Assembly: GCA_046757025.1 (NCBI GenBank)
Contig: JBHHXN010000051.1
Location: 1-31,275 of the forward strand
From: a bacterium
GTDB lineage: Bacteria; Zhuqueibacterota; Zhuqueibacteria; Oceanimicrobiales; Oceanimicrobiaceae
Reading direction: 5' to 3'
DNA length: 31,275 nucleotides
Part shown: piece by piece, positions 1,897 to 15,594 of the stretch
How the letters are laid out: the number at the start of each line of letters is the position of its first letter
Numbering within the stretch: position 1 is the stretch's first letter
Notes under the pieces: generated by a model
The model's input: only the letters and a program-made list of their open reading frames with translations
What the model was told of the DNA's origin: nothing
The model's database searches: none
Made by a program: the position numbers and the translations under genes

Positions 1897-1986
1897 TAAG
1901 TGCGAACAATTTATTATTTTATTACGTCAAATTTGAGTGAACAATTCAAAAAAAATACTCAAATACATCAAATCAAATTTTTTAAT

Positions 1987-3843
1987 ATGAAAAATGCCAT
2001 GCCTATTCTGTCAAACACACTTGTTTTGATAAATCTTTTATTATTTTTGAATTCTGCACATTCCCAATCCATTGAGAATTTACAAAACAAACTACATGAA
2101 TATATGATCAGAGAAACCAATCTCGGTTATTCCGGCACCTTGCTGGTAGCCAAAGACGGCAAGATCATTTTTTCCCGCGGTTACGGTCTGGCAGACCGCG
2201 CACGCGGCATTCCCGTGACCCCGGAAACCATCTTCACCACTGGCTCCATCACCAAACAATTTACCGCGGCCGCTATTCTCAAACTGGAAATGCAGGGTAA
2301 ACTCCGGGTGCCGGATGCGATTTCAAAATATTTCGACCGGGTGCCGGAAGACAAATCGCAAATCACCCTGCATCATTTGCTGACCCATACAGCGGGATTC
2401 CCGCCGGCGCTGGGATTCGATTTTACGGAAATTTCCCGCGAACAATATGTTGAGTTAGCCATGAATTCGCCCCTTGAGCACACGCCCGGTTCGGAATATG
2501 CTTATTCCAATGTGGGCTACAGTTTACTCGCCGCCATCATCGAGCTGGTTGCCAAACAGTCGTACAACGCCTTTGTGCGGGAAAATTTATTCGAACCCGC
2601 CGGCATGACCCAAACCGGTTATGTGGTGCCAAATTGGAATGCGGACAACATGGCGCACGGCTATCGCGGGGACGAAGATTGGGGCACCTTCCTGGATCAT
2701 CCGCGCACCGAAGACGGACCCTACTGGCACCTGCGCGGAAACGGCGGCATTCTGTCCACAGCCGGCGATATGTACCGCTGGCACATAGCGCTGGAAAGCA
2801 ACCGCATTCTTTCCGATGAATACCGGCAAAAGCTGTACAAACCGTATGTGCGGGAAGGGCAACACGCGTCGTCCTTTTACGGCTACGGCTGGTCGATTGT
2901 TGAGACGCCCCGGGGTACGCGGCTGATCACCCACAACGGTGGCAATCCCTATTTCACCGCCGATTTTCTGCGCTACCTCGACGAAGACGTCGTCATCTAC
3001 ATCACCTCCAGCAGCGCAGAAAGGCGGGCCACGCGCATCAGCCAGCAAATCGCTCGCATGGTGTTTGGTTATGATTACACGCTTCCCCCCTTGAAAATCG
3101 AAACCCTGAATCAAGAACAATTGGCGTCCTCGGAAATTGGGCGACGCGCACTAACATTTTTAAAGCTACTCGGCAGTCAGGATGAGCAGAACAACCGTGA
3201 ATTGATAAACGCTCTCTGTAGTTCCCGGCTCTTAAAAAAATATTCACCAGAAAAACTATTGGCCGCACTTCAGGCCGATCAAGAAGAAATCGGTGCGGTG
3301 AATTTTGGCCAGGCAGTCAAAGCCGATGATCTCACACTGGAATTGACCGTACAGTCAAAACAAAGCGGCGATTGGTGGCAAATTCGTTTGCAGTTTGAAA
3401 AACAGGCGCCGTTTAAAATCGACGGCATTGGCATCGTGGACACGTTGCCGCCACTTGCTGCCGGTCAAACCAGAGAACAAAAGCCAACCATGGATTTTCT
3501 CACCGAGAAGTGGGGGCTACCCGATTCCGAAACCGGCCGTCGCGCGGCCGCCATTTTGAACGCTTTTGAAAGCCCAAATGAAGATGAAATTTTTCAATTC
3601 GTTAAATCAAATTACGCAACGCCGCTGCTAAATCAATCACCCGTGGAAGCGCATGTAAAGCGTTTCAAGACCATACAAAAAAAGCTGGGCAAGTTTGCAC
3701 TGACCGGAGCCACTAAAACCGGAGGCTTTTCCGCTAAACTGAGCGTGCAGTCCACAGAAAACGAAAAAGCCTTTTCCATCCGCTTCACCCTTGAGCCGGG
3801 AGCTCCCTACCGCATTCTGGAGTGGCATTTTGAAGAGCATTAA
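1987..3843 (+). CDS. Secreted serine hydrolase, beta-lactamase class C/peptidase S12 family, with duplicated C-terminal domain
   Basis: SxxK (GSITKQF), LLTHTAG, YSN, HNGG motifs. A signal peptide follows ATG 1987; the GTG 1900 extension is AT-rich promoter sequence. Confidence 0.9.
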   Translation: MKNAMPILSNTLVLINLLLFLNSAHSQSIENLQNKLHEYMIRETNLGYSGTLLVAKDGKIIFSRGYGLADRARGIPVTPETIFTTGSITKQFTAAAILKLEMQGKLRVPDAISKYFDRVPEDKSQITLHHLLTHTAGFPPALGFDFTEISREQYVELAMNSPLEHTPGSEYAYSNVGYSLLAAIIELVAKQSYNAFVRENLFEPAGMTQTGYVVPNWNADNMAHGYRGDEDWGTFLDHPRTEDGPYWHLRGNGGILSTAGDMYRWHIALESNRILSDEYRQKLYKPYVREGQHASSFYGYGWSIVETPRGTRLITHNGGNPYFTADFLRYLDEDVVIYITSSSAERRATRISQQIARMVFGYDYTLPPLKIETLNQEQLASSEIGRRALTFLKLLGSQDEQNNRELINALCSSRLLKKYSPEKLLAALQADQEEIGAVNFGQAVKADDLTLELTVQSKQSGDWWQIRLQFEKQAPFKIDGIGIVDTLPPLAAGQTREQKPTMDFLTEKWGLPDSETGRRAAAILNAFESPNEDEIFQFVKSNYATPLLNQSPVEAHVKRFKTIQKKLGKFALTGATKTGGFSAKLSVQSTENEKAFSIRFTLEPGAPYRILEWHFEEH

Positions 3844-3892: not shown

Positions 3893-4706
3893 ATGCAATT
3901 GATGCGCATTTATTGTTTTCTGACCGCAATCGCGAGCTTTACAGCCCCGTCATCGCAGGCTCAGGTTATGCTTAAACGAACGGCTGAAGGCGGGGAAGGC
4001 GTATTCCATTTGCAGGAGCTGCAAACGTTTCTTACCAGCAAAAACGACACCGTCAGAGTGCTCATGGTTCTGCCAACGGATCTGCGACCCAAAGGTTACG
4101 AAGATATCACCATCAAAGAAAGCGATGCCATCCTCATGCTTAACGCCAAACGCGTCAAAACCGTGAAGCAAGTGGAAGACATTTACAACGGTCTGGAAAC
4201 AGGGGCCACGTTAAAAATGGGCATCCGCCGCAACGGTGAATTTTTTATCGAATCGCTGAAAAAGGTCGATCCAAAAGATCTGCCAAAGGATCGCAAGCTG
4301 AAATTCCAGTTGGACACGTCTGGAGAAGGCGCTGAGCACGCAGGCGGCGCCATAGTGAAGAACCCTGAGAATAAGCGCTGGAGGTCAGGGTCAGGCATCC
4401 ACGGGCTTACATCCCTGGTTGGGCACCGGCTTGGCGCTCGGATTTGAAAAAGACAAAATCGTGATCAAGGAAATCATGCAACACACAAAAAGCTCCCTGG
4501 GAGGAGCGGACCTCCAGGTGGGCGACCAGATCACGCATCTCCAGAATCAAAAATTGTCTTCCCTCGAGCAATTATTTGAAGTTTATGATGAAATCACCAG
4601 CGGCAGCGAAGTAAAACTCAGCTATTTGAGAAGTGGTAAAAAAATGCAAACCACGTTCAAGAAAAAAGCCGCCAGCAGAAGAATGATCATCAAAAGGAAG
4701 GAATAA
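3893..4706 (+). pseudogene. Exported double-PDZ-like protein split by a frameshift near 4358-4418 (or a sequencing error)
   Basis: ORF 3893-4447 has a signal peptide and a PDZ-like segment (IKESDAILMLNAKRV). The overlapping frame is open from 4359 to 4706 and encodes a second PDZ (LQVGDQITHLQNQKL). GGAGG RBS before 3893. Confidence 0.65.
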
Positions 4707-8460: not shown

Positions 8461-9876
8461 ATGATAAAACTGATCATCGAAAAAGAGCTGCGCGAAATCA
8501 TCGGTTCCACAAAATTTGCGGTAACCTTTGGCGTGTGTTCGCTATTGATTTTACTGACTTTTTATGCCAGTGCACAAAATCATCAAGTTAACTTGCAGAA
8601 ATACCGGGCCGCAAAAGCTGAAAATTTCCGGCAGTTACAAGGACTGACCGATTGGCTGCGAGTGAACAACTACCGCATCTTTCTGCCGCCGCAGCCTCTG
8701 GAATCGCTTGTTATCGGCATCTCAAACGACATCGGCCGCACCATTGAAATGGCCGGCCGGGGCGAGCTATCTGCTCACGACAGTCGCTTCAACAACGATC
8801 CGATTTTCGCCCTCTTTCGCTTTCTCGATTTGGACTTCCTCATTCAGATCGTGTTTTCTCTTTTCGCGATCTTGTTTGCTTACGACGCCATCAACGGAGA
8901 AAAGGAACGGGGAACGCTCAGACTCACTTTTGCCAACGCCATGGCCCGCGACAAATATATTCTCGGCAAGCTCATCGGCTCGTTCCTGGCCCTGGTGGCG
9001 CCACTGCTCATTCCCATTCTGTTAGGCATGTTAATCCTACCAATGATGGGGCTGCACCTAACCGGCGAGGAATGGCTTCGGTTGCTGTTCATCGTGCTCA
9101 CAGGACTGCTCTATTTTGGGGTATTTCTCACGCTGTCCATTTTCATCTCAGCCATGACCACGCGCTCTTCCAACTCCTTTTTGTTGCTGCTGGTGATCTG
9201 GATTTTTGCGGTTCTGATCATTCCCCGCACTTCGGTGCTGATCGCCGGACGTGCCGTGGAGGTACCATCGGTGGATGAGTTAGCCTCTCAAAAAAATCGC
9301 TTGCGGTCGCAGCTCTGGAACGAAGATCGAAAAAAAATGGCCACGTTTAAACCCGGCAAAACCAGCGATTTCGAAGCCATGCACCAGGAATTCCAGAAAT
9401 TCATGGAAAAGCTTGCTGAGGAACGAAACAAAAAGATGCTGGAGCTGACCGATCGCTTGAATGAAGATCGTCGCAATCGCCAGATACAACAGGAACGCCT
9501 GGCCTTCAGTCTGGCGAAAATGTCACCGACCTCTGCTTTTTCCCTGGCGACGACCAAGTTGACCGGCGTCTCCATCGAGCTAAAGAACCATTTTTTAAAG
9601 GAAGCTGTGGCTTACCAAAAAGAGTACGGTGAATTCATGAAGGAAAAAACCGGTATGAATCCCGGCGGCGGCATGATCATCATGCATTTAAAGCAGGACG
9701 ATGAGGAAGAAGAAAAGCCCATCGACCCCAAAGAGATGCCCGAGTTTAAGTACCATCAAATACCTTTGACAAACTCATTAAATGCGGCTCTGTTTGACAT
9801 CGGGCTTCTGGGATTTTTCAATGTTTTGTTTTTTGCGGGAGCGTTTGTGAAATTTCTCCGTTATGATGTGCGATAA
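8461..9876 (+). CDS. ABC-2 type transporter permease subunit 1
   Basis: Multiple TM helices, YDAINGEKERGTLRL motif, C-terminal FLRYDVR. Confidence 0.92.
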   Translation: MIKLIIEKELREIIGSTKFAVTFGVCSLLILLTFYASAQNHQVNLQKYRAAKAENFRQLQGLTDWLRVNNYRIFLPPQPLESLVIGISNDIGRTIEMAGRGELSAHDSRFNNDPIFALFRFLDLDFLIQIVFSLFAILFAYDAINGEKERGTLRLTFANAMARDKYILGKLIGSFLALVAPLLIPILLGMLILPMMGLHLTGEEWLRLLFIVLTGLLYFGVFLTLSIFISAMTTRSSNSFLLLLVIWIFAVLIIPRTSVLIAGRAVEVPSVDELASQKNRLRSQLWNEDRKKMATFKPGKTSDFEAMHQEFQKFMEKLAEERNKKMLELTDRLNEDRRNRQIQQERLAFSLAKMSPTSAFSLATTKLTGVSIELKNHFLKEAVAYQKEYGEFMKEKTGMNPGGGMIIMHLKQDDEEEEKPIDPKEMPEFKYHQIPLTNSLNAALFDIGLLGFFNVLFFAGAFVKFLRYDVR

Positions 9877-9882
9877 ATTTAG

Positions 9883-9979
9883 ACCTGAACCAAGCGATTC
9901 ATCATCGGCGTGAACACCCACTCTCTAACAAATCGACCCATCTGTGCGAATATGCCGGCTCAAATCGCTCAATTCAGGT
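9883..9979. mobile_element. Possible 97-bp MITE
   Basis: 17-bp imperfect inverted ends (ACCTGAACCAAGCGATT vs revcomp ACCTGAATTGAGCGATT, 14/17), flanked by TAG on both sides. Confidence 0.4.
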
Positions 9980-10060
9980 TAGTGAAACCCAAAAGATAAA
10001 ATGAACATATCAAATGGAATTTAATTGCAATATGTTAGTGGATTTATTGTGTAACTATTC

Positions 10061-10095
10061 AGCTATTGGCATTTAGCTGTTAGCTGTTGGCCATT
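10061..10095 (+). repeat. Left heptamer array (5 units)
   Basis: AGCTATT GGCATTT AGCTGTT AGCTGTT GGCCATT; inverted counterpart of 11698-11739. Confidence 0.8.
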
Positions 10096-10126
10096 GTTCC
10101 TAGCGCGGCGGAGCCGCAAATGTTTA

Positions 10127-10288
10127 AATGACTTGCTTTGTTGTAGTCCAAACCATGGTGCTATTATCAGCCGTCATTAAGCTTCGCTGTCATTGACAGA
10201 GGTGAATTATTGCTGCTGTCTAAAATGACGCCAAAGGCAAATGACCTGATGACTTTATGACGGGTCGTGTCATTCACTTCGCGTCATT
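10127..10288. repeat. Cluster of GTCAT/ATGAC motifs in both orientations
   Basis: Nine occurrences in about 160 bp, several paired as GTCATT-N8-10-GTCATT. Confidence 0.6.
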
Positions 10289-10354
10289 TAGCCATTTTCT
10301 TGTAAAAAAATGCAAAAGTTCAGAAGTAATACTATAAGTTGGTTGCAAACCATG

Positions 10355-11361
10355 TTAGACGTAAGAAATTCAACGATTGAGAAAAGGAATGGATAAATCA
10401 GTAGGTTATATATACATTTTAACATCTCCAAAAACCGATTGTATCAAAATAGGTGGGACGGATTATCCTCCATTAAAAAGAATAAAAGAGATAAACACAA
10501 CTGAACCCTATAAGAGTCTTGGTCCTTGGTCAATAGCTGATTTTCGCCAAGTTAATGATTGGCGAAAAGTTGAACATAATCTGCATTATACATTTAGAAG
10601 CAACTTGGATACGTCAATTGGTCAACAAAAGGAATTATTTCATGTTCCAATTCAAGATGCTTCAAAGAAATTAGATGAAATTGATCCTGAACAAATAGTA
10701 CATAAACCCAAAATAGACAGAATGTTTCAAGATGAGAATTTCTTAAACTATGTTATCAATTTATTTGTCTTTACGGGTTTAATGAATTGGTTAAATCTTC
10801 AAGGTGCGTGGACTTTTGTATTGTTTCCATCAACTTCAGGCGGAAGATATTTCACAATTAATATTGGATCTCATGAAGTGGCATTTAGCACACTTGGAAG
10901 AAAAGATTTAAAACAACAAAATATGATTTTAGTGGACAGATTAATTTTTGATTTTGGGCAGGTCATTAACTGGATAATGAGACATAATGGGACTATTGAA
11001 GTCGATCATTATGCAACAGCATTACCTCGATCGACGTCGATTATATTTGAAGGCTCTTTTGATGATGTGAATGAATTTCTAAGTTTGGATGGAGTGCGAC
11101 GAGCATTAATTGCTTATTGGAATGAAGCGTTGATTAAAATGAAAGAAAAAAATACATCGAGTGTTTATGCAAGATATCACAATTGGAATGCGGTCGCAAA
11201 ATTACATCATCGAATTGAAAATATGGAATAGCTAAAAACGTCTAACATCGCCTGCAGCCGACAGCGGGGCTGTGGATTCTTGGGTCGTTTGGAGCCTATC
11301 GAAAGTTTATTTTTATTAGCAAGTTAAGTGCCCTGAAATCCCGCTGCGGCTGAGGCACGTG
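10355..11361 (+). mobile_element. Integron gene cassette integrated outside an integron
   Basis: Begins G|TTAGACGT (10354-10362), contains one ORF, and ends in an attC whose R'' region ACGTCTAAC (11238-11246) is the exact reverse complement; right junction G|ATAGAT. Confidence 0.88.
10389..11231 (+). CDS. GIY-YIG nuclease family protein (T5orf172/MUG113-like) with uncharacterised C-terminal domain
   Basis: GYIYIL...IKIGGT...KRIKEIN...VEHNLH...KELF; AAAGGA directly before ATG 10389; AT-rich. Confidence 0.85.
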   Translation: MDKSVGYIYILTSPKTDCIKIGGTDYPPLKRIKEINTTEPYKSLGPWSIADFRQVNDWRKVEHNLHYTFRSNLDTSIGQQKELFHVPIQDASKKLDEIDPEQIVHKPKIDRMFQDENFLNYVINLFVFTGLMNWLNLQGAWTFVLFPSTSGGRYFTINIGSHEVAFSTLGRKDLKQQNMILVDRLIFDFGQVINWIMRHNGTIEVDHYATALPRSTSIIFEGSFDDVNEFLSLDGVRRALIAYWNEALIKMKEKNTSSVYARYHNWNAVAKLHHRIENME

Positions 11362-11367
11362 ATAGAT
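11240..11367 (+). other. attC recombination site
   Basis: R'' GTCTAAC. Left arm GCCT[G]CAGCCG[A]CAGCGGG (11250-11268) pairs perfectly with CCCGCTGCGGCTGAGGC (11340-11356) apart from two extra bases. R' reads G|ATAGAT. The left spacer is 4 nt, one shorter than usual. Confidence 0.88.
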
Positions 11368-11739
11368 TTCAGGACTCGGAATATTTGGAAAGTTGGGATT
11401 GCGATCGTTAAACAAGTTTACCGATTAGCAGAATTCCTTCCTGTTCAAGAAAAATATGGCTTAAGAAGTCAGATTTGTCGTTCGGCTGTATCGATACCTT
11501 CAAACATTGCCGAGGGTTGCAGTCGCCGCAGCCAAATAGATTTCAAACGGTTCCCGGAAATGACTTTAGGTTCATCGTTTGAATTCGAAACTCAATTAAT
11601 TATTATTGAAGAACTGTCTATCATCCCATCTGGAGATATCAGAGTAGTTTTGGATCAGTTAAACAAAGAACAAATGATGATAAATAATCTTATCAGCAAG
11701 CTAAAAGCTAAAAGCCAACAGCCAACAGCAAACAACTGA
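11359..11739 (+). CDS. Four-helix bundle protein (23S rRNA IVP / S23 / Avd-like family), possibly decaying
   Basis: EKYGLRSQICRSAVSIPSNIAEG...F..GSSFE.ETQL signature. The current GTG start is created by the cassette junction. Confidence 0.9.
   Translation: MIDFRTRNIWKVGIAIVKQVYRLAEFLPVQEKYGLRSQICRSAVSIPSNIAEGCSRRSQIDFKRFPEMTLGSSFEFETQLIIIEELSIIPSGDIRVVLDQLNKEQMMINNLISKLKAKSQQPTANN
11698..11739 (+). repeat. Right heptamer array (6 units) encoding the C-terminal tail KLKAKSQQPTANN
   Basis: AAGCTAA AAGCTAA AAGCCAA CAGCCAA CAGCAAA CAACTGA. Confidence 0.8.
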
Positions 11740-11782
11740 ACAGTTACTTTATTGTAGTGCAAAACAAATTTGGAGTGAAAAA

Positions 11783-13249
11783 ATGCTCAAAATCTTAATT
11801 GAAAAAGAACTCAAAGCCATTTTTCTCAGCCCCAAATTCATCGCGACTTTTGGAGTGTCTTCAATCCTAATTTTGTTGAGTATCGTTGTGGGTATTCGTG
11901 AATATAAGGCCGCGGTCAAACAATATGAATCCGCAACCCAGTTGGCAGCACAAGAGCTGCGAGAGCAGTCTTCCTACCAGGGTCTGCGAACACGCGTTTA
12001 CCGCAAACCGCATCCCATGCAGATTTTTGTTTCCGGCGTCCAGCATGACGTCGGGCGTTTGTCGGCCATCAGCTCGTTCAGTGCCATCAAATTGACCAAC
12101 AGCGTTTATTCCGACGACCCGATTTTCGCCGTGTTTCGATTTATCGATTTTACCTTCATCGTCAAAATCGTTTTGTCTTTGATCGCGGTTTTGTTTACTT
12201 ACGATGCCGTCAATGGCGAGCGAGAGAAAGGCACCTTAAAGCTGATATTTTCCAACGCCGTCCCGCGCGCGCAGTACATTCTCGCCAAGCTAATCGGTTC
12301 CTGGATCGGCATGGTGATTCCCCTTCTCATTCCGATTTTACTCGGATTACTGCTGGTTTCTTTGTTCGGGATTCCTCTGACTGGCGAACACTGGATCAAG
12401 ATTACGCTGTTGATAGGCAGCGCGATTTTATTTTTCACGTATTTCATCGCTTCTGGGCTGCTGATTTCATCGTTTACCCGGCATTCGGCCATCGCGTTTT
12501 TGATTTTATTGGTAAGCTGGGTGTTCTTTGTGTTGATTTTTCCCAGAGCCGGTGTGATGGCCGCGGGCAAATTGGTTCCCCTGCCATCGGCCGCTGAAAT
12601 TGACGGCCAGCAGGATGGCTTTGCGAAATCCCGCTGGACGCATTTCACGGAAGAAATGCAGACACGATGGCAGAAACGCTCCGCAGCCATGGCCGGCCTG
12701 TCCAAAGAAGAACGCGCAAATTATCGCGATGAGCATCTGTGGGAGTGGATGGAGGAAGAAGACGCCGCCCGCAAACAGGTTGAGGCGGCCATCAACGATT
12801 TTAATCTTAAGTTGCAGGAAGATTTGCGCAACCGTAAAGCCCAGCAGGAGCGACTGGCTTTCACCATTTCTCGCTTTTCGCCCGCTTCGGCGTTTCAACT
12901 AACCGCCATGAATTTAGCCGACACCAACATCCGCCTGAAAACGCGCTACGAAGACGCCATGCAAAACTACCGCACACAATTTATCGAATACAAAGAGAAA
13001 AAACAGAAAGAAACCGGCAGCCGTGGCGGAATTCGCATCACCCTTGACAGTGAATCTGGCATGAAAATCGACACCGGACGGGATAAAGGTCACCTGAATC
13101 TCAGCGACATGCCGAAATTTACCCCACCGCAAACTGCCCTCAACGACGCGGTCGCGCCCACAATCATCGATTTTGGTTTGCTCGCTCTGTTTACACTAAC
13201 CGCCTTTGCCGGAGCATTTGTGGCGTTTCTAAAATATGACGTTCGATGA
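11783..13249 (+). CDS. ABC-2 type transporter permease subunit 2 (paralog of 8461-9876)
   Basis: YDAVNGEREKGTLKL, DDPIFAVFRF, C-terminal FLKYDVR; GGAG RBS. Confidence 0.92.
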   Translation: MLKILIEKELKAIFLSPKFIATFGVSSILILLSIVVGIREYKAAVKQYESATQLAAQELREQSSYQGLRTRVYRKPHPMQIFVSGVQHDVGRLSAISSFSAIKLTNSVYSDDPIFAVFRFIDFTFIVKIVLSLIAVLFTYDAVNGEREKGTLKLIFSNAVPRAQYILAKLIGSWIGMVIPLLIPILLGLLLVSLFGIPLTGEHWIKITLLIGSAILFFTYFIASGLLISSFTRHSAIAFLILLVSWVFFVLIFPRAGVMAAGKLVPLPSAAEIDGQQDGFAKSRWTHFTEEMQTRWQKRSAAMAGLSKEERANYRDEHLWEWMEEEDAARKQVEAAINDFNLKLQEDLRNRKAQQERLAFTISRFSPASAFQLTAMNLADTNIRLKTRYEDAMQNYRTQFIEYKEKKQKETGSRGGIRITLDSESGMKIDTGRDKGHLNLSDMPKFTPPQTALNDAVAPTIIDFGLLALFTLTAFAGAFVAFLKYDVR

Positions 13250-13272: not shown

Positions 13273-13713
13273 TTACTCCAGTTTCTCTAAATCAGCTAAA
13301 TCTTGCAAACGACCGGTTGCTCTTTTATTTTTTTTAAAATTTTCCAAATCGATGAAATTCATCAATATTTCATCAACCTGCACTTCAACTTTGTTAGAAT
13401 AGCAATGGTCAAAATCTACTCCTTTCAGAGCCAGAATAAGGTCAATCCGACTTGGGGGGTAACCGAGTTGAATGATTGTTTCTGGATCAAGAAAGTCTTC
13501 AGGTTGTAAACCTAATGAACCGAATCCGAATTGGTTTATAGCTTTAATCAGGTTTTCTGCATTTACTTTGTTCAGGTAAACCCAAATATCCAAATCTTTG
13601 GTATAACGTGGGTGCCCATGCAAAGCTAATGCATAGCCGCCAACAATCAGGTATCGAACGTCATTTTCGTTTAACGATTGTATAAACTCTTTGAAATCCT
13701 GGTTCAGTACCAT
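13273..13713 (-). CDS. Pol-beta-superfamily small nucleotidyltransferase
   Basis: YLIVGGYALALHGHPRYTKDLD (GG...DxD) and C-terminal NKRATGRLQDLADLE. Confidence 0.85.
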   Translation of the reverse strand: MVLNQDFKEFIQSLNENDVRYLIVGGYALALHGHPRYTKDLDIWVYLNKVNAENLIKAINQFGFGSLGLQPEDFLDPETIIQLGYPPSRIDLILALKGVDFDHCYSNKVEVQVDEILMNFIDLENFKKNKRATGRLQDLADLEKLE

Positions 13714-13861
13714 ATTTCCAGCGGTGATATTCTTGCCGTATTTGTTCTAAAGTGGCAAGGCGGGTTTCGTATGGTTGGGTTTGCCAAAAGGCAAAATCGT
13801 TTTTTTGTTGATCAATTTTTACTTTTTTAAAAACTTTTTGTATTTTAAAAAATGAATTCAC
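13661..13861 (-). CDS. Small basic protein overlapping the nucleotidyltransferase start; candidate partner/antitoxin
   Basis: 66 aa, DFAFWQTQPYETRLATLEQIRQEY...FQRVYTIVKR; 53-bp overlap with the downstream gene. Start uncertain. Confidence 0.65.
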   Translation of the reverse strand: MNSFFKIQKVFKKVKIDQQKNDFAFWQTQPYETRLATLEQIRQEYHRWKYGTEPGFQRVYTIVKRK

Positions 13862-13971
13862 AATTCAATGTAGCTATAATCATCTTATTTTTCAAGGAAT
13901 AAATCGCTGAACAACACAAGTGCTGATCTCCGCGTCATTCGTGCATCGCTCTGCAGAGGTGTTTAAAGCAT

Positions 13972-14985
13972 TCAATCTAAAATGAACTCCGAAATTTGAT
14001 ATTTAAAACTTGAAATGATTAACTGGTTTTTTGTCCACTGAAAAACCCAGATTAAAAAGGACATAAAGGGTGGAATCAATCCTGACAATAGAGCGATAAA
14101 TAATTTATTGCCCATCAAAAAAGACCACAAATTGAGCTCAGAGAAAATCACAATTGGAATGACTACTAAATAATAACAAACAATAAACGGCACAATATTG
14201 ATTAACAATCTCCTTTTTGGAGACAAATAATCTGCGGGGTTCTTTATATCCAGAATCAGATATTCCAGAATTTCAGCCCTTTCCTCAATTAGCTCCTTAA
14301 ACCTTACTGGATTCTCTTCCGCAAATTTTCTTAGTTCTGAAAGGTGACTTATAACGCCATTCAGCCTGTATTTGATGATTCTTAAAATATGCGGCGTAAT
14401 CTCACAATTCGGACTGGTTAAAAGTTTGTCGCCTTTTTCAAGCTTTTCAAGATTTTCAATGTTCGTTTGGATATGTTGTTCAACATCAGTTTCATGAACA
14501 CCATACATCAATTTTGTTTGCAGGCTCCTTAATCCAACACTACATATATAAATGTTGTAAAGATGTATCGATTTCGCTCTTATTTCGTAGAGTATTCGAT
14601 TCTGCCATTCTTTTATTTCCTGAGATATTAAATCTATTTTTGTATTTAATGCACTTCCTTGATCTTCTTTAGTGAAACGTGCAATATCTTTTGCAATTTT
14701 TGTTATGTCACCTAAGACTCTCATACTATTACTTAAAATCTTACACAAATACAAAAAGTTTTCAAACAAATTCTTCGCTTCACGGTCTAAATTCGACCCT
14801 TCTTGCCCTTGGTGTTCTTTGTTTAAAAATGCTCGCATCCGCCAAACGACCTCTGAAATACACGCAAATAATCTTCCTAATTCCCATACCTGGTAGGTTA
14901 TATCGGGCCGCTCCAATTGTTGAGAAAACAATTCTTTATCTTTTTTAGTTAGAGATATCAAATCCATCGAGCGTTTCCTAAACAT
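13972..14985 (-). CDS. Hypothetical helical protein with two C-terminal TM segments
   Basis: 337-aa AT-rich ORF; hydrophobic LLINIVPFIVCYYLVVIPIVIF and LFIALLSGLIPPFMSFLIWVF. Start may be ATG 14967. Confidence 0.7.
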   Translation of the reverse strand: MFRKRSMDLISLTKKDKELFSQQLERPDITYQVWELGRLFACISEVVWRMRAFLNKEHQGQEGSNLDREAKNLFENFLYLCKILSNSMRVLGDITKIAKDIARFTKEDQGSALNTKIDLISQEIKEWQNRILYEIRAKSIHLYNIYICSVGLRSLQTKLMYGVHETDVEQHIQTNIENLEKLEKGDKLLTSPNCEITPHILRIIKYRLNGVISHLSELRKFAEENPVRFKELIEERAEILEYLILDIKNPADYLSPKRRLLINIVPFIVCYYLVVIPIVIFSELNLWSFLMGNKLFIALLSGLIPPFMSFLIWVFQWTKNQLIISSFKYQISEFILD

Positions 14986-15069
14986 TCTTTTTTAGATACC
15001 CGACCACCGCAAATTTCAGCCACCCTGAACGATTAAAATCATTGAACAAACTTGCGGTTGATTGTTTAA

Positions 15070-15594
15070 TCAAGTCTCACGTTTGAATATTTGAATTTTG
15101 ACCTTTTTGGGGAAAAATAATCTAAATGGCTGATTCAACAATTTTAATACAAAAGGAACAATTAATAGGTCCGTCGCTTTCAATCTTAATTTATTACCTA
15201 TTCTGGCCTCGAGAAAAAAATACTCCTGCTCGTCGTTATCGCTTTTCAAGCCTACTTTATGCTTCTTGATTTTGTTTGATAATTGGATAAGCTGAGAATC
15301 CATAAGTTTTTTATTGACAAACACCTTTATTGGAAATATTTGGGTAGGCATTACCTTGATCTGACCTGAATCTGGAATTATTTTAACTGTAAACATCTTC
15401 TGGTTGTCATCGTTAAGAACGTTTATAGTCGATATTTCATTGATCCAATCAGATTCTTCAACATTCGGTACGGGAAATTGATTGATGAGGATTCTTTTCA
15501 ACTCCTGCGTTTGAGCCACTAATAATTGAGAGACACATAGCAGGAAAACAAATAAACTTGATTTAAACAATGGATAAAAATCCTTATTTATCAT
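15070..15594 (-). CDS. Hypothetical exported protein
   Basis: 174-aa ORF with GGGAG RBS and signal peptide ending LVA|Q; no recognisable family. Confidence 0.6.
   Translation of the reverse strand: MINKDFYPLFKSSLFVFLLCVSQLLVAQTQELKRILINQFPVPNVEESDWINEISTINVLNDDNQKMFTVKIIPDSGQIKVMPTQIFPIKVFVNKKLMDSQLIQLSNKIKKHKVGLKSDNDEQEYFFLEARIGNKLRLKATDLLIVPFVLKLLNQPFRLFFPKKVKIQIFKRET

Follow-up and report, generated by a model that had tools for sequence, protein, structure and literature searches.

Mobile insertion cassettes (MICs) such as MIC231, which derives from IS231 of the IS4 family, are insertion sequence (IS) derivatives that lack a transposase, carry passengers and are mobilised in trans, as described in the part of the report available to us (PMC6199540). 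The end of ISDge4, an ISBst12-group member, reads GTAACTGCTCAGCA; this element has one open reading frame (ORF) and an 8-bp repeat, and its transposition has been seen, again according to the accessible portion of its description (PMC12898284). For integron cassettes, the available text of the work that defines single attC sites lacking integron-integrase (SALINs) gives GWT as the consensus of the genomic attG sites into which the integrase inserts (10.1101/2022.09.11.507474). Here we describe a locus in a bacterium of the phylum Zhuqueibacterota that combines known kinds, the mobile insertion cassette and the solitary cassette. The locus lies in a stretch of 31,275 nucleotides, the window, which is positions 1 to 31,275 of contig JBHHXN010000051.1 in assembly GCA_046757025.1. 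It is an ISBst12-ended mobile insertion cassette with two further occupants, an integron cassette that stands alone and another non-autonomous element. No description of ISBst12-derived cargo elements, or of a cassette inside one, was found in the literature searched, which lay mostly outside subscription journals.

Like MICs, the element has two inverted repeats, no transposase, at least one coding sequence and passengers that are interchangeable within its kind. It differs from the MICs in the available part of that report in several respects: its ends are IS66/ISBst12 and not IS231, its 456-bp core is smaller than the reported 0.7-3 kb, its passengers are small repeat-armed genes that are often broken, and mobilisation in trans is something we only infer (PMC6199540). 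With the ISBst12 group (ISDge4, as far as its accessible description goes, ISGka4 and ISGst1) it shares GTAACT-R-Y-TCAG ends, an 8-bp duplication and a similar total size, but it has no transposase, and what lies inside is a small heptamer-armed gene and, in addition, two secondary inserts. As in the SALIN and attG cases covered by the text available, there is one gene with one attC, no integrase nearby and a GWT target; here, however, the target is within a transposable unit whose ends are intact, and this could open another route of movement to the cassette (10.1101/2022.09.11.507474).

Other described systems resemble the locus less closely. [quoted passage not shown] The tIS66 elements, such as ISPa75-fosZ, likewise carry a passenger gene between IS66 ends, but in the available part of their description they retain transposase genes and belong to the three-ORF type (PMC12888890). 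ORF-bearing 23S rRNA intervening sequences, as partly available, hold a PF05635 protein inside RNA-pairing ends; the present element lies outside an rRNA gene and is bounded by transposon ends and a duplication (PMC4990558). Three of these classes were considered as identifications and rejected: a strict MITE, as the core carries a full-length bundle ORF; an IMU or MITE-flanked integron, as there is one element only and no intI or attI was recognised at it; and a 23S rRNA intervening sequence, as the flanks are ABC-2 permease genes.

The two copies of the 8-bp target duplication TTTATTGT (10043-10050 and 11748-11755) enclose 1697 bp (10051-11747); the left copy is defined by its sequence and by a genome-wide peak of flank identity at 8 bp. 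Directly inside them stand the left terminal inverted repeat GTAACTATTCAG (10051-10062, plus strand), which is of the ISBst12-group IS66 type and follows the consensus common to IS66 transposase loci and ISDge4, and the right one, CTGAACAGTTAC (11736-11747, minus strand; GTAACTGTTCAG read inward). Mutually inverted heptamer runs adjoin both ends, and the left arm (10062-10092, plus strand; TTAGCTG/TTGGC-type) is complementary to the right arm (11698-11735, plus strand; AAGCTAA/AGCCAAC). As RNA, the arm duplex reaches -35.9 kcal/mol, versus -17.0 +/- 3.5 in 300 shuffles, and the arms are also predicted to pair in the fold of the whole 1697-nt form. The ORF list and the profile search gave only two ORFs of at least 50 amino acids (aa) inside the element, a T5orf172/GIY-YIG gene and a four-helix-bundle gene, and no transposase ORF. 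Because the single DDE transposase ORF is missing, this is a non-autonomous ISBst12 derivative and not an IS. The original prediction had proposed a non-autonomous, transposase-less element with IS66-like ends, an 8-bp duplication and heptamer arrays running up to the ends, all of which holds; the IS66 ends stand too, with the exact group now narrowed to single-ORF ISBst12.

The element is built of three layers: a 456-bp core, a 234-bp repeat element and a 1007-bp attC cassette. We regard it as probable that this transposase-less, ISBst12-ended structure inserted, likely as the 456-bp unit, and that the other two layers likely arrived later as independent insertions. The inserts are read as late arrivals because the cassette is single-copy, none of the other attC sites checked is enclosed by such ends, and the 234-bp copy is identical to another one.

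The ends belong to a large family within the same genome (G000), a draft of 5.96 Mb that is 94.8% complete and in which the window contig is C51. The 12-mer GTAACTRYTCAG occurs there 56 times, versus once for the reversed control. Looser end matches number 132 and form 20 inward-facing pairs within 3.5 kb, whereas three neighbours face outward and two point the same direction. Flank identity in these pairs is maximal at 8 bp (0.77, versus 0.25-0.50 for other lengths); the duplication is perfect in 5/20 and matches at 7/8 or better in 11/20, while over 10,000 shuffles of the partners the pairs at the latter level averaged 0.59 and never exceeded 5. One pair on C224 (1/8) is probably due to chance and was kept among the 20. 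The pairs measure 59-1697 bp, the 19 other than the present element all being 782 bp or less, and their interiors fall into several unrelated classes. Besides the four-helix bundle of C51, the same ends hold a GIY-YIG relic in two 463-bp units (C28, C129) and a PDDEXK_3 relic of the PD-(D/E)XK type in a 782-bp unit on C123; many smaller units with these ends showed no bundle-type gene. A 124-bp GTAAC unit with a 7/8 duplication was also seen inserted into a relic, internally deleted, of this same four-helix-bundle unit (C332:2167-2290). Over 167 genomes of the phylum, the own one included, the 12-mer is patchy, and six genomes (G067, G142, G007, G159, G046 and G161) show bursts of 100-456 copies of GTAACTRYTCAG with about equal forward and reverse counts.

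A transposase with the same ends, which the original prediction had suggested looking for, exists in related genomes. PF03050 matches occur in 7/20 same-family genomes, and among 30 loci examined, L047, from a same-family genome, has this end. It has a single complete ORF of 505 aa (NF033517, 324 bits; cut-off 180), starts with GTAACTATTCAGC, and its stop codon overlaps the right end. Four further genomes of the phylum hold relatives with such ends, and one locus (L070) has both end variants of the window together with an 8/8 duplication. The strict end was present at 62/80 metagenome loci of related transposases versus 0/80 for the reversed control. From 86 loci examined we obtained 31 complete elements with distinct flanks, 1508-1898 bp long, and the window ends fit their consensus as well as the ISDge4 end. 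Distant relatives are annotated as ISGka4 and ISGst1 in plasmid records. Judged by sequence, the end family is the single-ORF ISBst12 group of IS66, with ends GTAACT(A/G)TTCAG.

Taking out both inserts leaves the ends, the heptamer arms, a leader and an open bundle gene, 456 bp in all. The bundle ORF (11359-11739, plus strand, 126 aa) belongs to the four-helix-bundle family of 23S rRNA intervening sequence proteins (TIGR02436, 102.8 bits against a cut-off of 24; PF05635, 100.8 bits). It is open but severed from its own ATG and leader, and a GTG start is now made by the last attC bases. As the window ORF extends beyond the usual stop, stop counts were not used. A sibling on C92 has neither insert and is 94.7% identical over 323 aligned bases. 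The bundle genes of C92 and C14 are broken, and the same 33-base palindrome breaks these two sibling genes at slightly different positions (approximately C92:19850-19885 and C14:10235-10270). In three other genomes, 448-bp units stand at unrelated sites with duplications of 7/8 (L107), 7/8 (L260) and 5/8 (L252); the L107 unit is 76.9% identical to the window core and its gene has a stop. A 438-bp unit at L254 has a duplication match of 0/8. Sibling units with duplications at other sites bear on transposition in trans, though indirectly.

One might propose that the heptamer-armed bundle unit has its own means of moving and that the GTAAC ends are incidental or a mere frame. Most heptamer-armed bundle genes lack these ends, in keeping with such a view: GTAAC ends were found at 0/22 aligned bundle loci of the family (8/30 loci were unaligned and left out), 12/17 of the closest bundle relatives have none and most of them carry heptamer runs, and six of the nine G000 bundle genes have heptamers of another kind, with flanks that, where examined, lack such an end. 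Other repeat arms also stand in the orthologous operon spacers of relatives. The breakpoints, however, coincide exactly with the GTAAC ends and show 8-bp duplications in this element, at L107 and at L260, and we consider this explanation very improbable; an own mechanism may account for older bundle cassettes, not for the present insertion. Since most bundle loci examined are without these ends, it is one lineage of an older heptamer-armed bundle unit that sits between ISBst12 ends. The suggestion that such units spread bundle genes therefore holds insofar as copies occur at other sites, and fails as a general account of the bundle genes examined.

The second layer lies at 10100-10333, as defined by its genome copies and by its absence from sibling C92, and is a non-coding, high-copy element of 234 bp. 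The original prediction had described a 690-bp unit; this figure is in fact 456 bp plus 234 bp, because 10100-10333 is a separate high-copy repeat. There are 22 near-full copies in G000, most of them 99-100% identical, and the window copy is 100% identical to one on C30. Among 31 complete units of 153-234 bp with the same asymmetric ends, 28 sit in the target C|ATAA. The family has neither terminal inverted repeats nor a target duplication, and its end motif occurs in 9/20 same-family genomes. It is apparently active and possibly an undescribed non-autonomous class, and the window copy is probably the youngest layer of the element. The family's ends consist of a tetramer plus a GC hairpin on one side and a 26-base A+T-rich box on the other; its interiors are interchangeable, about 120-240 bp long, and often have heptamer runs. 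Members of this type also occur at L216, L218, L221-L224, L231, L233 and L234, and several other copies come after sequences that resemble element ends. One 234-bp element stands exactly at the left boundary of the 463-bp GTAAC unit on C28 (C28:34069-34769), which is why that unit has no duplication.

An autonomous partner of the 234-bp element was not found in viral contigs, plasmids or 11 genomes of another class. ISNCY, IS110, IS91 and IS200/605 were weighed as its possible family; its end motifs did not flank the ISNCY-like, IS110 or Y1 transposase matches of G000, and no transposase was recognised by eye upstream of 20 end loci of the family. A search for IS91 gave no match anywhere, controls included. 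The 234-bp element holds 5 promoter-like sites versus 7.0 +/- 2.4 by chance, and none serves the cassette.

The third layer is a solitary integron-type gene cassette of 1007 bp (10355-11361, plus strand; TTAGAC ... G), inserted at G|AT. It follows the remainder of the bundle-gene leader (10334-10354, plus strand), which includes the original ATG at 10352-10354 and was identified by comparison with siblings C92, C14, C20, C90 and C206. The attC site (11240-11361, plus strand) has R'' GTCTAAC at 11240-11246, L'' at 11252-11259 and L' at 11348-11354. Closing the cassette to a circle gives a 128-nt attC with R'' GTCTAAC, R' GTTAGAC, spacers of 5 and 6 bases and one unpaired base in L''; in this circular form it is fully paired end to end, with a fold of -24.8 kcal/mol on the bottom strand. 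The attC ends at the G of R', and the left cassette junction is the G of the bundle gene's original ATG, so that the restored target at the bundle gene start is ATG|ATA, that is G|AT. In relatives, GTT or GCT comes directly after the homologous attC. The cassette has a GC content of 0.35, versus 0.49-0.50 in the permeases.

The cassette gene (10389-11231, plus strand) encodes 280 aa from ATG, or 284 aa from an alternative TTG start at 10377, and has a T5orf172/GIY-YIG-like N-terminal domain (PF10544, E 6e-11) and a conserved C-terminal domain with no Pfam match. Its homologues at E<=1e-30 number 451, those with names coming from distant phyla, and it has a relative in one of the 166 other genomes of the phylum (L204), at which the attC profile found no attC. 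A weak match to PADLOC PDC-S57, a candidate defence family, lies at the N-terminus; a defence role is a guess.

Integron parts occur elsewhere in the genome. With a profile built from one own and several related sites, which replaced a first heuristic that was too strict (4 hits), G000 shows 15 further attC-like sites, some weak (hits with E up to 0.03 are uncertain) and several near contig ends. Two such sites share one contig (C197:1225-1352 and 2830-2934), which suggests a cassette array for which the assembly holds no integrase. C51 itself has one attC-like hit only and no integrase match. Integrases above cut-off occur in 11/20 same-family genomes. By their sequence, the cassette junctions fit attG-type integrase insertion at a GWT site. 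The capture of an integron cassette by the unit had been foreseen in the original prediction; the attC cassette is real, but the unit itself is no captor.

The simplest reading is that the core likely came first. A heptamer-armed bundle-gene lineage would have come to lie between ISBst12 ends, forming a unit of some 450 bp, which an ISBst12-type transposase may then have copied in trans into an A+T-rich spacer, duplicating TTTATTGT. Next, an integron integrase would have recombined the attC of a circular cassette with the GAT in the ATG-ATA that begins the bundle gene, in an attG-type event that would leave a solitary cassette and cut the bundle gene off from its leader. Finally, the 234-bp element would have gone into a C|ATAA, its usual target, 21 bases upstream. 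What resulted is most likely selfish DNA that has piled up in a spacer and is tolerated there.

Alternatively, the cassette could have entered the unit elsewhere and the loaded unit could then have transposed here, so that ISBst12 ends would be a vehicle for attC cassettes that needs no integron. Both ends are intact, the duplication is a perfect 8/8, the composite of 1697 bp falls within the size range of the autonomous elements, and ends of this type carry several cargoes; MITE-flanked integrons and the transposition of the IMU in trans are, moreover, published, as the accessible part of that report states (PMC3575428). We nevertheless judge this unlikely. The assembly holds no donor or second copy, the other 19 pairs do not exceed 782 bp, and cassette-free siblings stand at other loci. 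Enclosure of an attC by GTAAC ends was seen at 0/15 of the other sites in G000 and at 0/9 attC loci of relatives. With these counts and the single copy of the cassette, the transposition route for attC cassettes that had been put forward for this locus is unsupported.

Our preferred reading, in which the core inserted first, has to contend with a number of observations that weigh against it. No complete cognate transposase was found in the G000 draft: PF03050 gave no match and NF033517 one short fragment, an N-terminal IS66 piece at the end of contig C354 that is 34% identical to L047, and no GTAAC end was seen in the stretch examined around it. Perfect 8-bp duplications flank only 6 of the 31 complete autonomous elements, the other 25 matching at 6/8 or fewer, and the flanks of L047 itself do not match; collapsed repeats in the assemblies or rearrangement could be the cause of these missing duplications. 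Integrase searches in G000 returned 4 partial matches, none over the cut-off. GWT is a frequent trinucleotide, the siblings read ATG-AGA where the window reads ATG-ATA, and the crossover position could slide by two bases. Since GWT is common and the siblings read ATG-AGA, the attG reading is supported and not proven. An empty site was not found among 40 relatives, and those with adjacent permeases are of other genera, with 64-71% identity.

The element lies in an A+T-rich spacer between two intact ABC-2 permease genes (8461-9876 and 11783-13249, both on the plus strand), downstream of an ABC ATPase gene, with the second permease starting 27 bases past the duplication. The operon, which had been thought to be split, does have the element between its permeases, but the insertion is intergenic and both ORFs are intact; the operon is stretched, not broken. 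The permeases are adjacent in several relatives, and the six spacers examined are about 20-200 bases long, none with this unit. Of the relatives with adjacent permeases and a single TTTATTGT that the original prediction asked for, the adjacent permeases were found and the empty allele was not. Three of the six orthologous spacers (L035, L036 and L039) hold different repeat arms or palindromes, and because of this the permease spacer has the look of a place where elements land repeatedly. In the window the same spacer contains one more short segment of inverted repeats (9883-9979), part of it with four weak copies elsewhere in the genome. All inserts are co-oriented with the operon and no terminator was found across them, so read-through from the operon could, as far as the sequence indicates, express the nuclease-domain cassette gene.

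Three repeat families meet at this locus, and the nesting might be suspected to be an assembly chimera. Most of the stretch is present in four public runs that come from a single study and may be where it originated, and no contig of these runs spans the whole element. Their contigs do carry three of the junctions separately: one joins the left flank to the left arm (to 10079), one the 234-bp element to the cassette (10309-11353), and one the bundle gene to permease 2 (from 11658 or 11627). Matching duplications in unique flanks and the sibling sequence that is restored by removing each insert also contradict a chimera, which we find scarcely credible. Joints in the runs that skip both inserts carry sibling letters and were read as other loci. 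An empty-site or excised-cassette joint was absent from the contigs of six public runs, two of which hold little or nothing; the absence of an excision joint is no proof of anything. Contig depth in runs X1-X4 was about 3-8 over the cassette versus 6-15 in the flanks; it gives no copy number and was not used as evidence, and the lower depth may reflect A+T bias or a cassette-free subpopulation.

Elsewhere in the window, 1900-3843 encodes a 647-aa serine hydrolase of the beta-lactamase Pfam family, which scores well under every cut-off for class C beta-lactamases. At 13273-15594 (minus strand) and 3893-4447 there are four ORFs, 146-337 aa long, that have no Pfam match.

A common and hitherto unexplained 12-mer, with 56 copies here and up to 456 in a relative, can now be assigned to a group of transposases that has a name. 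That these ends surround three small gene families partly explains the scatter of such genes. The locus also offers a solitary cassette of natural origin; siblings allow its target to be read one base at a time, and this target fits the attG model. It is tempting to go further and to speculate that throughout the phylum ISBst12 ends generally shuttle small selfish genes with repeat arms (four-helix bundle, GIY-YIG, PD-(D/E)XK), that the units, being numerous and placed in tolerated spacers, serve as attG landing pads, and that loaded units, with intact ends and no larger than a normal ISBst12 element, are re-launched by transposition; we hold this wider proposal to be rather unlikely. If it were true, there would be an integron-free route that spreads gene cassettes, possibly defence nucleases among them. 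Renewed movement of loaded units, if it occurs, would link integron recombination to transposition in the absence of an integron, something beyond the reach of one locus to show.

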